A DNA stretch of 61,058 bases, the filler included, from Porpidia crustulata (Eukaryota): assembly GCA_964255105.1 (NCBI GenBank). It is 7 parts of 7 records of this genome, joined end to end, with 100 filler letters (N's around TTAATTAATTAA, not from the genome) between each part and the next. Parts side by side here need not be neighbours in the genome. Positions count along the whole stretch, not along the records: positions 34,999 to 43,620 come from CAXUWE010001082.1; 6 more parts are not named here. One strand, written 5' to 3'. The translations under genes were made by a program, and so were the position numbers. The notes under the pieces are model-generated. The model searched no databases, was not told where the DNA came from, and saw nothing but the letters and a program-made list of their open reading frames with translations. Positions 36,752 to 43,720 of the stretch are shown one piece after another (position 1 is the stretch's first letter; each line of letters begins with the position of its first letter).

Positions 36752-38881
36752 TTAGTTGCGAATTTGGAGATGATATGTTCGTAAAACCTCTTCGCTGATT
36801 TTGGAAGGGCTCTTGACCAACAAATCCTCGCCTTTCCCACTTTTGGGAAAAGCAATGACATCCCTTACAGACTCCTTTCCCAGCATGACAGCAATCAGTC
36901 GATCGAATCCAAGGGCGATACCAGCGTGAGGCGGGCAACCTGATTGTAATACTTCGAGGAGATGGGAGAATTCGGCAATCCGCTCGGGTGGCATTTGTAG
37001 AACTTCCCGCATTACGAGTTCTTGCATGTCAGCGTTATGGATACGCCGACTACCACCGCCTAATTCCACTCCGTTCATGACTAAATCATAATGATCCCCA
37101 ATAACTTGTGATGGATTTGTCCGGAGCAAATCAATATCTTCTGGCGACTTTGGTGACGTGAATGGATGATGGGTAGAAGCTAGACCAGCACTACCACCTT
37201 GGCCTGGTCCAGATATATTCGAAGGAGAGAAAAGGGGAAAGTCAGTTATCCACAAAGGTTCAAAGCCCCGAAGAGCATCCATGAGCTTTTCTACTATTGC
37301 AGTCTTCACGAGAGCGAGTCGCATATTTCCTAGGGACGTCGAACTCCCCGAAAAGGGCTCTTTTCTCCTAGCCTGCAGGATAATGAGGTCTCCATCTTTG
37401 GCGTTCAATAAATCTTCGACCCTTTCTGCCCCTTCAAATCCAAAAGCCTGCAGTCCAGAGAGAGGTTTGCTTGAGTCATATATGAAGACCCCGGGGCCGC
37501 CTTCAAGATTCTCATGAAACGGAGTAGCTGTAGTAGAGTCCAAGAAGTTGCTAATGAACTTGTGAGTATCTTTTGGACTACAATGATTGCTTAACGGTAG
37601 TAGCATTGCTTCCACGATGGGGTCCTTGAGTGGGGATATCTTGCTAATAAGATCAGCAGGTAGGAGATGCTCGATCCTCAACAACGGCTTCATTCGGATT
37701 CGCAAGTCAGGCTTGTCAGAACCAAAGTCGGACATGGCTTCCTCATAAGTCATTTGTGGAAATGATGGAGGTAACTCGGAGACAAGCGTTTGCTTCCACA
37801 AGTTTCTCATGATAACTTCGATACAATCTATGACATCACTTCCAGTGGCAAAGGACATTTCGAGATCCAACTGTCATTTGGATTAGCATAGAAAGCCAGT
37901 ATTGCCCACATCACCTACCTGAGTAAATTCCGGCTGCCTATCAGCTCTTTGGTCTTCATCACGAAAGCACTTCGCAATCTGGTAGTACTTTGGAATCCCA
38001 CTGGCCATGATTGTTTGTTTAAACTGTTGAGGACTCTGTGGTAAGGCATACGCCAACCCCTTGCGTCTTGTAGGCACAATGAATTCTCTCGCACCTTCAG
38101 GGGTAGACTTGAATAGCAGGGGTGTCTCCACTTCAATAAATCCGAGTCCATCAAGTACGTGCCTACAAATGCTCGCAGCTTTGGCCCTAAATTCAAGCGC
38201 ATCTCGAAGATCCTTATTGAAGCGAAGTTGGAGATGTCGCCGATCAGGTGCAAATACACCGTCTGCAGGCGCGATGATGTCCGATGGGAAATCATTTAGA
38301 ACTTGTACTTCTATGAGGTTAACCTCGACATCGTCAATTTTTCTGACCCGGTCATATCCGTCGGATTTAGAAGGCCTTTTATCTTTGAATCTACCCGTGA
38401 CGATGATGGGTGAATTGGTTCGAAGACTCTTGAGTTTTTTATTTAGAGATTCATTAGAAGAAACTACTTGTATTTTACAAGATAGGTGTTTGCTGTAGAG
38501 CCAGAAAAAACATAATTTTCCTGATAGCACTGACTTCCCTCCGAGATATCCGTGGAGGACGATCTCTTCGGTGTTTGAGGAACTGAACTTCTTGGTTTCA
38601 TAAATCCGAGAGATTTCCTCATTGATCTCGTGTGTTGCCTCGGGAAAATGAGCTTGTATAAAACCAAAATTAGCCAGCTCTCATGCCACATTGTACGTCG
38701 AACAAAACAACCTACTCGATTCTTTATATCTATCGAAGATTGATAACCGCTCATTTGTATAACATCTTTCGTGCAAAGTCTGATATATTCCTTTACTTGA
38801 GAAAAACTTGTATAGTTCAACGTAGCTGTGACGTGCAGCGCGACTGGTCGAACGAATTATAGGCAGCGATTGGGTCAACAT
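36752..38881 (-). CDS. MSD1: Mitochondrial aspartyl-tRNA synthetase, 3 exons
   Basis: Arg/Ser-rich presequence [18 protein letters not shown]. Motifs [73 protein letters not shown] and [12 protein letters not shown]. Confidence 0.95.
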
Positions 38882-39056
38882 TTGTAGATATCAATGGCTC
38901 CAACGCCTTGAAGATACTCGCAATATTGGAGCGAGATGGTGGGATTCTACAACAGGTACAGCTTCATGATTTCGACTATCTATTGGCGCTAGCAATGTTC
39001 CCGTAATTTATGCGAACAATAAACAAATTCCGTACCACTGATCTTCTTCTTTTGTC

Positions 39057-39303
39057 ATCCTTCCAAGTTTTGAACATGTGAGTTCTCACATACTACTTTT
39101 CCCGAATTAGCTCAAGCTAATATATATCCAGATGATGAAAGCCTAGAGTGTAGGATATGATATAATCTCGCCCACTCCGACTGGCAGCTCTCCCTTAACC
39201 GGGCTTAAGTGGCTTGTACGTTGGGTGTGGAAGAGAGTATGATATGGGCGTTTGACACACACACCTTGTTACTCAACGGACGCGATGAAGGCATCTCTGA
39301 TCC
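39057..39303 (+). ncRNA. snR45: Box C/D snoRNA snR45/U13 (SNORD13) ortholog, interrupted by a 54-nt intron (39078-39131)
   Basis: 5' guide ATCCTTCC (39057-39064) is complementary to 18S GGAAGGAU. Box C ATGATGA 39132-39138. Guide ACCTTGTTAC (39263-39272) is complementary to 18S GUAACAAGGU. C'-like GCGATGA 39282-39288; box D CTGA 39297-39300. Intron signals GTGAGT..GCTAAT..CCAG. Confidence 0.82.
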
Positions 39304-40144
39304 TCAAACTTGGAAGATGTTAAAGGGTGGATGTTTGGACTGTTGTGCAGCGCCAACGAGCGTTATCCTTTGCGTGCAGATATATATAAATAATTCAACG
39401 GTCTCCTTCCCTTCCTTTAGCACGTCCTTCATGTGTCTCCACGCCTGGCGTCAAGTGACGCTGGACAGAATGTAACCCGCAGGCGCACTAAGGACTCGGT
39501 ACAAGCAACGCTGAGTCTCACGATAGCTGGACGGAAGATTGAAGAAGCGGTGTCAACAGTCCACCATCTCCAGGGCTTCAAATACCCTACACTAGATGGA
39601 GGGTCGTAACAACGTCGCAAGATTTCTCCTCTATCAAAATCAGAAATTACAACTAAGTTTCAACTCTTCATCACATCACGAGCGTATAGAGTGATAGAGT
39701 AAAGTAGATAACTAAGTCCTTAGATTATTCTGTGAATGGGACAATTTGATGCCGAATATTTTGCCAAGCCGGTGCCCGGCTATATAGATAATCCAGATAC
39801 AAACAACAGCTCCATCTCCAGAAACTTCTCTATTTTGTTGAACGAGAACAACTTGATCTGAACCTCACTCCTGGGATCTTATTCTCGTCGGATGATACTG
39901 TACATTGTTTGACTTGATCTGGGTAGAGGCGCTGCTGTTGAAAAGTCCGAGCTTCGAAGTAAGCGCAAATAGCTTCATGGCGATTGTACCTCCTCAGCAA
40001 TGGTGCTTTACTAGACGTTTCAATGATTAGCACAAGCACGAAACTACGAACTCAATAATACTACTCCTGGAGGAGCCTACAAAGTAGACCCTATGAGCGC
40101 AGGTTGCGACACGATTGGGTATATTGCCTACTTTCTCAGCAGCC

Positions 40145-42499
40145 ATGACAGGATCTTTCGAGAAGTCTGTCAAGGGCGGCACAAAGATAAAGGTGCCAAT
40201 GCTTGGAAGTCATTGAGCGATAAATCCGCTGATTTTATGGTGATAGCTTGCAGCACCGAAGTCAAAATACGTCGAGCACATTCTTGTCGCAACACATGCT
40301 GGAGAAGCTGGAGTCGCGGAAATGTTTAGAGCCTTACAGAATAGGCTACGGGATTCAACATGGACTATTGTCTTCAAAGCACTCATCATAGTGCATCTCA
40401 TGATACGAGAGGGAGAGCCAAACGTGACTCTCAAGTTCCTGGCTGAGTCGCCATCCAAATTGGCAATCAGCAACTTCTCTGATGGTGAGTCCGGGCCAAG
40501 TCTATCATAAGCGTGATGGGATCAGGAAGCATGGGTAGGACAGAAAGGTGTCCATTGCTAAGGGTTCGTTGAAATCAAGCCTTTGCTGACGGATCGTGCT
40601 TTGATAGTACAGGTCCAAGGCAGCAATATTCGGCACTACTATGCATATTTGTTAGGAAGAGCAAAAGCATACCGAGATACAAGAATCGACTGGGTCAGAG
40701 AGGGCCAGGGTAGGCTGAAGAGGCAGACCGTGGATAAGGGTCTACTACGAGAGACGGAGACTGTACAAAGCCAAATAGCGGCTTTACTCAAATGCGATGT
40801 ATGTTACAACTACAGTCATGAAAAAGTTTTCGCACGTAAGCTGCTGATTCTACTGTAGCTTCTCAGCAATGAGCCGGATAATGAAATTACTCTGACGGCA
40901 TTCCGTCTACTGACTATGGACCTCTTGACGCTATTTCATAGCATGAATGAGGGCACGATAAATGTGTTAGGTGCGTATGTACACTTGTGGCAGTAAGCAT
41001 ACTTGGCTGATCAATCGTTCCTAGAGCACTATTTTGAGATGTCAAAATATGATGCAGAGCGTGCTTTGTTGATATACAAGACATTTAGTAAACAGACAAA
41101 CCAGGTAGTTGAATACCTCAGTACGGCCAGACAGTATGAACATGCGACCCGCTTAGACATACCAAAGCTCAAGCACGCCCCTACAAGCTTGACTGGATCA
41201 TTGGAAGAGTATCTCAACGACCCGGACTTCGAGATCAACAGACGACAATACCTTGCTCAACAAGAAGGTAAAAAGGGCAACAAGCCGATGCGAAATGGAG
41301 CGACAGGTTCCTCAGATGACTTCGCCAAGCTTGGATTTAGTAAGACCTCTGCTGCCCAGAAGTTTCCAGAGCCAAAAGATTCGGCGGTGGCGCCTACTAT
41401 AGCTCCAGTCAAACAAGTACCTAAAGCACCAGCACCAGATCTAATCGATTTCTTTGAATCTATCGAGCAGAATCCTCAATCCATGACTGGACAAGTCTCA
41501 AGTATTCAGAATGCGCCCCAGTACAGTGATCATGGAGCGCAATCACAACAGCCAAATATCTTCGCCCAGAATGGGCAACCACAACAGCAGATCGCTAGTA
41601 CATTTCCTAATGGAATCCATCCGGGCCAGATACAAGCACAACAGCCTGTATCGACAAATCAGATTGACTCTGGCTTCAGCAATTACGCTCAACAAGCCTT
41701 TAATCCACAAAACTCAATCATGTCACCAACTGATGTCAATGGATTTACTCAACAGCAGCAGCCTTTCGGTAAAGGGCAGCAGCTCCAGCAGCAGCAGCAG
41801 CACAGTTTTACTAACGTCCAACAATCTCAGCCCCAACAGTTATTTAACCCGGGCCAACAACCATTCACCACAGCGCACCAACCTCAACATCAGTCGCCAT
41901 TCAGTACAGGATTACAATCCCAAGCGACGAACCCATTCAAGAAATCAATGATGCCCCAAGATACAAGTCCTAATGGTACATTCATAAATTCGCCGTCGCT
42001 GCCATCTCCACAAACCCGTCAGTCTACTAATCCATTTGCACGCAGTACATCTGCTCAGCCTACGGCTGAACTTCAAGGTTCAACCTTTCCAATGCAATTA
42101 TCGAACTCGGGCTCCACATTCGCTGCACCATCGCTTAACCAGGGCTCTCCATTCATGTCTCAACCACCTCAGGGCACGCCCTTCAATTCAACTCCGCCTC
42201 AGCAGCAACAACAGCAGTCACAAGTCGCCCAAGCCCTACAGCCTATGAAGACGGGCACCAATCCATTCGCTCGGAACATAATACCACCCCAGCCGCAACC
42301 TCCAATTGCCTCACCACTGGTGCCAAATGCTACAGGGAGCACTAACCCTTTTCGACAAAGCCAATTTGTGAACCAACAGGCTGGCCAAGGCTGGCAGAGT
42401 CATCAGGGTTCCATGGGAGGCTTGGAGCAACTACCTACGATACCGGTCTTTCCCCGTCCCGGACAACAAGTCCAGCCAGCACAGCAAGGCTGGCCGTAA
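40145..42499 (+). CDS. YAP1801: ANTH/AP180 clathrin-assembly adaptor (Yap1801/2-like), 5 exons
   Basis: MTGSFEKSVKGGTKIK|LAAPKSKYVEHIL, RLRDSTWTIVFKALIIVHLMIREG, NEGTINVLEHYFEMSKYDA and LEEYLNDPDFEINRRQYL. DLIDFF motif and a Gln-rich tail with four TNPF motifs. Confidence 0.92.
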
Positions 42500-42785: not shown

Positions 42786-43620
42786 TCAGAATCCGAAAAA
42801 GCCCGCAATGGTATCCCCAATCGTCGCTTTCCCATCTGCCCTTCTTTTCTTCCGATGCTTGTCCTGATCTTCGTAAATCTCCCCAATCTGCCTTCCTAGC
42901 ACCTCCGTTGCCTGTGCCTCCACAGCCACGGCGTGCTCTTCCAACTGCCTCTCCTCTGGCGTCATGCCCTTCAACCTCTCATTTAACGCTGCCCTAGCTT
43001 CGGGCTTGAGCCTGTCCTTGCCGTCCGTTGGAGGTAGAGAATCATTTGATCTAGGCGAAGCCGAGGCCGCGGTAGAGACAATTGGTGGGAAAGAGGGGAT
43101 GGGGAGGTTTGCAGCCTTGGCGGCCTCGATCTCTTTTTCTTGTGACAGCATACGGTGAAACAGTGAATCGGCGTGCATTTGTATATCTTCATCCACCGAC
43201 GGCGGCCGGTCGTAGGTGGAGAGGTACCCGAGCGCTTTGAGGAACCTTGACTGCATCATGTAGCACCGCTCAAACTGCTTATTCTCTGCCCGGCACATCG
43301 TAAGCCGCTTCTCCCATCCCCCGTGTGTGAAGCAGTCGCTCACGGCGCCCTGCTCCAACGCGCAATTCTCGAGGGCGGCCCGCGCAATGTCGGCTTTCCG
43401 TTGCTTGTAGCCTTCGAGGACGTCGAGGAGTCTGTCTTGGTCGGTCTTTGTGGCGTTTTCTATTTCCTGAAGGGGACGGTAGGTTTTCCAGAGGTGGGCG
43501 TAGCGGCCGTCGGAGAAGAGGGATTGAGGGGGGACGGTAGGAGTGTTAGGGTCGGAGCTCGATGGAGTTGCCGATGTTTGACGAGGAGTGGAAGGCGGTT
43601 GTGGCAGAGGGGGGGGGTGC
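42786..43620 (-). CDS. Conserved fungal protein with twin CX9C motif (5' lost at contig end)
   Basis: RAALENCALEQGAVSDCFTHGGWEKRLTMCRAENKQFERCYMMQSRFLKALGYLS...IQMHAD. Ends with GKATIGDTIAGFFGF*. Confidence 0.75.
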
Positions 43621-43720
43621 NNNNNNNNNNNNNNNNNNNNNNNNNNNNNNNNNNNNNNNNNNNNTTAATTAATTAANNNNNNNNNNNNNNNNNNNNNNNN
43701 NNNNNNNNNNNNNNNNNNNN
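43621..43720. other. Artificial contig-joining spacer
   Basis: N44-TTAATTAATTAA-N44. Confidence 0.97.

Follow-up and report, generated by a model that had tools for sequence, protein, structure and literature searches.

Organization of the locus

The subject of this work is a putative small nucleolar RNA (snoRNA) gene of the box C/D class in DNA of Porpidia crustulata (assembly GCA_964255105.1), located on the plus strand around positions 39057 to 39316 of an analysed stretch of 61,058 nucleotides (nt), filler included, which is here called the window and along which all positions are counted; the part concerned comes from record CAXUWE010001082.1. Cytidine acetylation guided by RNA has been described for snR4 and snR45 of yeast and for SNORD13 of animals and plants. 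The guide for the Kre33-dependent N4-acetylcytidine (ac4C) at position 1773, ac4C1773, in helix 45 of 18S ribosomal RNA (rRNA) of Saccharomyces cerevisiae is snR45. The locus in the window is best read as a real and widely conserved gene of this snR45/SNORD13 type, in which a spliceosomal intron very probably lies between the 5' guide exon and box C. Flanking open reading frames (ORFs) put the snoRNA unit in a spacer of about 1.5 kb, in agreement with an earlier note, written from the sequence of the window, which had called the place apparently intergenic. The upstream neighbour, head-to-head with the unit, is a gene of mitochondrial-type aspartyl-tRNA synthetase (AspRS; 36752-38756, minus strand), and the downstream neighbour, about 0.95 kb away and on the same strand as the unit, is a gene of an ANTH-domain protein (40134-42499, plus strand).

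The features on which the interpretation depends are listed below, with counts that refer to the aligned relatives described in the next section.

39057..39064, plus strand: guide 1 (GS1), ATCCTTCC; its reverse complement GGAAGGAT is the 3' strand of 18S helix 45
39057..39077, plus strand: known stretch of exon 1, reaching from guide 1 as far as the 5' splice site; upstream of this the exon continues to its true 5' end
39060..39073, plus strand: 5' strand of the terminal stem, pairing with 39304-39316, with T39071 bulged
39078..39131, plus strand: putative spliceosomal intron of 54 nt, with GTGAGT, GCTAAT (branch A at 39120) and 11 nt from there to CAG
39132..39138, plus strand: box C, ATGATGA, invariant in 30 of 30 sequences; the scan demanded TGATGA but neither the A in front nor the AAGCCTAG that follows
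39263..39272, plus strand: guide 2 (GS2), ACCTTGTTAC; its reverse complement GTAACAAGGT is the 5' flank of helix 45
39297..39300, plus strand: box D, CTGA, invariant in 30 of 30 sequences and outside the search pattern
39304..39316, plus strand: 3' trailer strand of the terminal stem, which masks CTTCC of guide 1 and resembles the rRNA target (GGAAG)

Most of the motifs reported in the earlier note were found exactly as it had described them, namely both guides (ATCCTTCC at 39057-39064 and ACCTTGTTAC at 39263-39272), GTGAGT at 39078-39083, GCTAAT at 39116-39121, CCAG ending at 39131 and ATGATGA at 39132-39138. Box D (CTGA) is present too, its position being slightly shifted to 39297-39300. The extent of the unit had to be corrected: instead of ending at 39303 it runs to about 39316-39320, and it begins upstream of 39057. 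When guide 1, a gap, TGATGA, a gap and guide 2 were taken together as one composite pattern, this pattern occurred once in the 61 kb window and in none of 100 dinucleotide-preserving shuffles. The 10-mer of guide 2 has its sole exact copy here, on either strand of the window, and sites with one mismatch number 4, against 2.3 expected.

Relatives and conserved neighbourhood

Metagenome data were scanned for ATCCTTCC, 53-83 nt, TGATGA, 109-139 nt and ACCTTGTTAC, in this order, and 44 loci comprising 34 distinct sequences were obtained. True homologues make up 38 of the 44 loci; their 30 distinct sequences can be aligned with the window over the whole unit and represent about 20 lineages, defined by grouping rows on intron similarity. 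The other six loci (L013/L016, L019/L044, L022 and L030; four distinct sequences) have nothing in common beyond the pattern and were rejected as chance matches. The alignment, A1, consists of the window and 29 relatives in 28 distinct rows, L027 being omitted as it is cut at a contig end.

A number of segments which were outside the search pattern are nonetheless invariant, or nearly so. These are the C in front of guide 1 and the (A)AGTTT behind it, the GGAAGG of the trailer, AAAGCCTAG after box C, two internal TGA boxes, GGCATCTCTGA at box D and the GCGTTCG/CGGACGC helix around guide 2. The flanks of the relatives' units are randomised, as are the intron interiors. Conservation of the guides and of the C/D boxes in related genomes, which the earlier note had named as a check, is borne out in the 30 aligned sequences, for the guides and TGATGA partly by ascertainment. 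All 18 guide positions are unchanged over deep divergence, which argues for constraint.

The neighbourhood is conserved as well. The AspRS gene stands head-to-head with the snoRNA unit in 29 of the 44 loci, with a protein 33-66% identical to the AspRS of the window (44-66% in 27 of these 29), and the ANTH-domain gene follows downstream on the same strand in 22 of the 44. Such conserved AspRS and ANTH neighbours indicate that the unit was kept in place over deep divergence, and the three-gene arrangement of AspRS, snoRNA and ANTH suggests a shared bidirectional promoter region.

The probable intron between guide 1 and box C

The segment between guide 1 and box C had been interpreted in the earlier note as a fungal intron, and this is supported by the splice signals, which recur at both boundaries in all 28 distinct rows, with a randomised interior between them. 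In every row the donor has GT and a G at +5, the hexamers being GTGAGT (10 rows), GTAAGC (6), GTATGT (5), GTAAGT (3) and others (4). Acceptors are CAG in 17 rows, TAG in 10 and AAG in 1, always directly abutting ATGATGA, and the length of the segment varies from 49 to 61 nt. The branch motif, 10-16 nt from the acceptor, is RCTRAY at the aligned column in 21 rows and, judged by eye, 3 nt further upstream in 3 more (L005, L008 and L020); the remaining rows have RTTRAY (3 rows) or GCTAAA (1 row). Compared between the approximately 20 lineages, exon 1 has an identity of 0.85 and the stretch bounded by boxes C and D one of 0.78; that of the intron interior, 0.54, is equal to the value for shuffled introns (0.53 +/- 0.07). 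Over the 28 distinct rows exon 1 has a mean pairwise identity of 0.86. Guide 1 is 67 nt away from box C in the DNA and 13 nt away with the intron removed.

Introns of filamentous ascomycetes are characterised by GT-AG ends, a donor close to GTRWGT, a branch motif RCTRAY placed 6-36 nt before the acceptor and a size of some 50-90 nt, and criteria of this kind led to the acceptance of the introns in U3 genes of most Pezizomycotina as ordinary spliceosomal ones (PMC5832005; this paper, as well as PMC5464676, PMC5824354, PMC9226516 and PMC9670809 below, is cited from excerpts). The 54-nt segment agrees with this description in its ends, donor, branch motif and length, and it likewise has a free interior between constrained flanks. 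An internal reference is offered by the AspRS gene, whose 48-nt intron (37871-37918, minus strand) has GTAGGT, GCTAAT and 12 nt to CAG; it splits the class II synthetase motif, and its junction was placed from the ORF layout and the continuity of that conserved motif. It is very probable that 39078-39131 is a spliceosomal intron.

The terminal stem

A stem formed by exon 1 with the 3' trailer was absent from the earlier note, and it provides the strongest structural argument for splicing. Among the sequences 22 distinct combinations of the two stem halves (haplotypes) occur, and all of them pair, with 5-11 base pairs (bp) beyond a fixed CC/GG. Changes in one half are compensated in the other, as in AAGTT/AACTT versus AATTC/GAATT, and a one-base deletion is matched on the opposite strand. 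When halves were swapped between sequences, the mean energy of -8.74 kcal/mol for cognate halves stood against -6.20 kcal/mol for non-cognate ones and none of 2000 permutations was as low, a result which is somewhat inflated by sequence relatedness. In the window, 58 nt separate the 5' strand of the stem from box C as long as the intron is present; once the intron is taken out, this distance falls to 4 nt, and on the other side box D and the stem are 3 nt apart. RNAalifold applied to the intron-free columns did not return the terminal stem because MAFFT puts the compensating indels of both strands in different registers, and the stem was therefore analysed sequence by sequence.

Structure of the snoRNA body

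Between box C and box D the following features were recognised.

39141..39143, plus strand: GCC, paired with GGC at 39290-39292 in a short helix inside the C/D motif; 96.4% of cells paired, one pair with two-sided change
39148..39151, plus strand: GTGT, possible pseudoknot with ACAC at 39255-39258 in the guide-2 loop; 100% of cells paired
39157..39160, plus strand: D'-like box, ATGA (CTGA in 6 relatives), with invariant TGA; the label D' is our reading
39186..39214, plus strand: conserved internal hairpin in the D'-C' insert of about 80 nt; 96-98% of cells paired, pair 160/186 being GC in 14 and AU in 12
39239..39245, plus strand: C'-like box, ATGATAT (RTGAWAT in relatives), with invariant TGA; the label C' is likewise our reading
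39248..39283, plus strand: hairpin presenting guide 2, with stem 39248-39254/39277-39283 and ACCTTGTTAC in the loop; 7 pairs, 100% of cells paired, 2 pairs with two-sided change

With the core structure as specified, 95.9% of cells hold standard pairs, against 31-47% when the partners are slid, and two-sided changes are seen in 6 pairs, against 2 with slid partners and 1.4 in shuffles. The possible pseudoknot GTGT/ACAC comprises 4 pairs, 2 of them invariant and 2 varying on one side only (one pair is UG in 19, UA in 6 and CG in 3). As regards the internal stem GCCT/AGGC which the earlier note had drawn inside C and D, a helix is indeed there, in the form of GCC with GGC. The C'-like box of that note (GATGAA, 39284-39289) had to be abandoned, being unconserved: relatives read TTTGAT, GATCAC or TCTGAC at this place. 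Neither guide is positioned according to the D+5 rule. Guide 1 lies upstream of box C; guide 2, whose last position is 39272, leaves 24 nt to box D, and the RNA is therefore not a methylation guide for that site.

Comparison with known guide RNAs

The identity proposed in the earlier note, a snR45/U13-type RNA with two antisense elements against helix 45, is supported by the family of 30 sequences and by an architecture such as that published for snR45 and pre-SNORD13. At the 3' end of yeast 18S rRNA, both guides would pair with the published stretches of snR45 and would leave CCG unpaired between them. In snR45 the 5' guide stands before box C, the guide-2 loop abuts a well-supported helix downstream of C', a pseudoknot was proposed from this loop to nucleotides after box C, and D' is non-canonical (PMC5464676). 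All of these traits but the pseudoknot, for which there is here a candidate with barely varying pairs, recur in the present RNA, and so does the lack of a D+5 guide. The two differ in that here a probable intron lies between guide 1 and box C and no sequence similarity is detected by Rfam; moreover, guide 1 is here a perfect 8-mer, whereas that of snR45 spans nucleotides 1-15 with imperfect pairing (PMC5464676). According to the excerpts of the snoStrip survey, the snR45 family is found in Saccharomycetaceae only (PMC5824354).

In vertebrate pre-SNORD13 the 5' antisense element is masked by a 3' extension, in stems IV and V, and this extension is thought to help join the C and D boxes (PMC9670809). 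SNORD13 (U13) of vertebrates, other metazoans and plants shares with the present RNA two antisense elements flanking the CCG of helix 45, and the stem of exon 1 with the trailer would mask the 5' guide in like manner. In contrast, the excerpted descriptions of SNORD13 mention no intron, and the present RNA has a far bigger body, spanning about 165 nt from C to D, with the long D'-C' insert.

Introns within fungal box C/D RNAs have a precedent in U3. Most Pezizomycotina U3 genes have an intron in the 5' domain, with GTRWGT, RCTRAY and YAG as signals, and with the exception of yeast and Neurospora the fungal U3 introns were accepted on computational grounds alone (PMC5832005). The present locus would resemble fungal U3 in being an independently expressed gene of the box C/D class with a short GT-AG intron in its 5' functional domain. 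Unlike it, U3 acts in pre-rRNA cleavage and has its intron inside the 5' hairpin, whereas the probable intron here separates a guide from box C. Intron-split snoRNAs and exon-derived snR45-U13/U3 were described in a Cryptococcus preprint (bioRxiv 10.1101/2024.10.08.617225); those basidiomycete RNAs fit the Rfam U3 model and their guides are possibly spread over two RNAs, whereas here both guides belong to a single box C/D RNA which is not U3.

A cross-eukaryote survey of SNORD13 is devoted mainly to animals and plants and gives fungal helix-45 sequences in its supplement, where a term search brought up no fungal guide RNA beyond snR45 among the matches seen (PMC9226516). The Neurospora orphan Nc CD53 (212 nt; PMC2780460 supplement) is without guide 2 and was rejected as a different RNA. 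Full-text searches for the box-C and guide-2 strings led to papers on rRNA primers only. In the literature, the coverage of which is incomplete, no description of such a gene was found; the Aspergillus fumigatus catalogue (PMC2377427) or the supplement of PMC5824354 could hold a member.

Proposed pathway

The following course of events is proposed. Transcription would begin shortly upstream of 39057, and the short exon 1 would bring guide 1, complementary to the 3' strand of 18S helix 45. Removal of the 54-nt intron (39078-39131) would join exon 1 directly to box C. In a 3'-extended precursor exon 1 would pair with the trailer just past box D, and the spliced stem, with 4 nt left to box C and 3 nt to box D, would unite the two boxes for assembly of the C/D core proteins. 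Trimming of the trailer would then free guide 1, after which guides 1 and 2 could pair on either side of the helix-45 CCG and offer it to the acetyltransferase Kre33/NAT10. We consider it fairly likely that the pathway runs in this way, with the intron removed, guide 1 joined to box C and both guides presenting the helix-45 CCG for acetylation, and splicing is probably needed before the guide can assume its working shape.

Several points weigh against this proposal. Guide motifs, TGATGA and their spacing were required by the scan, so that the invariance among its hits and the lack of intron-less relatives are partly there by construction. Guide 1 has 8 nt only, of which 5 to 6 are also needed for the trailer stem, and owing to this overlap its conservation could reflect the stem alone. 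Its complementarity was judged on the common eukaryotic helix-45 string, which ends with GGAAGGA in most eukaryotes, and helix 45 of Neurospora and Podospora differs from the common form (PMC9226516 supplement). The pseudoknot pairs hardly vary, and the fold of the unspliced precursor is unremarkable (z = -1.41, with 19 of 200 shuffles at least as stable). In searches of unspliced genomic DNA with Rfam 15, no match was obtained on the window at the gathering score, none on 38900-39450 at E<=10 and none on 20 of the 38 homologous loci at E<=1; this silence means that family membership rests on architecture and not on scored similarity. Finally, direct observation covers the motifs, the family of sequences, the covarying stems, the synteny and the splice signals, which are conserved around a free interior; transcription, splicing, RNA ends, protein binding and acetylation are all inferred from these.

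Alternative explanations

Splicing could also take place in a gene of another kind, where exon 1 would be no more than a leader to be discarded. It would belong to a longer transcript, of a host gene or polycistronic, running perhaps to a downstream H/ACA-like element or to the ANTH gene, and after trimming to box C the mature RNA would act through guide 2 only, a single guide as in Drosophila SNORD13. SNORD13 of Diptera is without the 5' antisense element and acetylation is still supported there, whereas in yeast the 5' guide is essential (PMC9226516). Exon-encoded snoRNAs are found in Neurospora, and the snR45-U13/U3 RNAs of the Cryptococcus preprint are exon-derived. The ANTH gene is syntenic and on the same strand (22 of 44 loci), and 16 of the 30 sequences have a second conserved structured element 150-170 nt downstream; this element is, however, absent, as judged by its anchor, from 12 relatives with at least 847 nt of flank, so that co-transcription with it cannot be general. 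Furthermore, the conservation of exon 1 matches that of the snoRNA body (0.85 vs 0.78), and the covariation of exon 1 with the trailer argues that this exon is still attached while the C/D core forms. All things considered, a leader of this sort appears improbable.

The 54 nt might instead be retained, which would give a mature RNA of about 250 nt whose long and flexible 5' extension carries guide 1. In favour of this view, folding of the unspliced sequence also predicts the terminal stem. Yet a mere linker gives no reason for a fixed GT..G, a branch motif at 10-16 nt and (Y/A)AG in 28 of 28 rows around a randomised interior, and 49-61 nt is an ordinary intron length in these genomes, the AspRS intron of the window having 48 nt. 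Retention is regarded as quite unlikely.

Very unlikely, in turn, is a classical intron-encoded snoRNA, for which the donor at 39078 would be used with a distant acceptor and the C/D RNA would be freed by debranching and trimming. It is true that most Neurospora box C/D genes are intron-encoded and that the downstream gene is on the same strand, but the branch motif and the acceptor directly before box C would be without a role in every row, no conserved donor- or acceptor-like signal is seen after the trailer in the alignment, and the 5' exon would become separated from its covarying partner, the trailer.

That short motifs merely co-occur by chance in an intergenic spacer without any gene, as the shortness of every motif and the silence of Rfam might suggest, is refuted to the point of a negligible probability by the shuffles (0 of 100) and by 30 further distinct sequences with the whole unit, covarying helices and conserved synteny.

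Possible significance

If the reading as a spliced RNA with two guides is true, a large group of filamentous fungi would have its missing helix-45 guide, and the gene would join the very few snoRNA genes other than U3 whose functional RNA must itself be spliced. Fungi and vertebrates would then have in common the masking of the 5' guide by a trailer, which would speak for common descent, and not convergence, of snR45 and SNORD13.

A more far-reaching idea, tentative and in our opinion rather doubtful, is that the intron is a conserved assembly checkpoint, by which the spliceosome licenses helix-45 acetylation in a large part of the filamentous ascomycetes. The intron would keep the 5' strand of the stem and guide 1 at 50-60 nt from box C, and only spliced RNA would close the stem by the C/D motif, bind the core proteins and expose guide 1 after trimming. 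This arrangement, together with the head-to-head AspRS gene, has been kept across lineages with AspRS proteins about 45-65% identical.

Elements upstream and downstream of the unit

One further feature was noticed on the 5' side of the unit.

39018..39027, plus strand: A-rich, TATA-like box, 30-39 nt 5' of guide 1; possible promoter mark

A simple motif scan detected comparable A-rich boxes, between -35 and -42, in 8 of 30 sequences, with looser A-rich strings in others, and the box in the window is a weak candidate for a promoter mark. The transcription start of the snoRNA unit would lie, we infer, inside the pyrimidine tract 39040-39056. Beyond the A-rich box, 60-75 nt 5' of guide 1 (about 38985-38995 of the window), there is a motif similar to CTAGCG or GCTAGCG which recurs in many relatives. 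Its variants, collected by eye and uncounted, are GGCGCTAGC in the window and GGCTAGCGC, GACTAGCG and GTTAGCG in relatives, and it may be a promoter element.

On the 3' side, at least 170 nt past the C/D unit, the window contains a candidate H/ACA-like RNA (39477-39622, plus strand) with two hairpins, a hinge and a CGC-A(N)A end. RNAalifold with 13 sequences gave 19 pairs, 8 of them with compensatory changes. Sixteen of 30 sequences have the anchor TGYCAACRG of this element, whose H box is degenerate; the assignment to the H/ACA class is our reading. A search of 39300-40300 with Rfam gave no match for the element, and the sub-threshold matches in this interval (snoU30 with E 4.3 on the minus strand, ALIL and HOTAIRM1_5) were taken as chance. 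The conserved 3' pocket strand of the element (39603-39613, plus strand; GACGTAACAAC in relatives) contains CGTAACAA, which has the same sense as the 18S target of guide 2 and with which guide 2 could pair over 7-8 bp. The presence of CGTAACAA may be due to chance, or it may be a second masking element.

Elsewhere in the window, undetermined bases at about 43620-43664, where a minus-strand open frame is a string of X, were read as an assembly gap.

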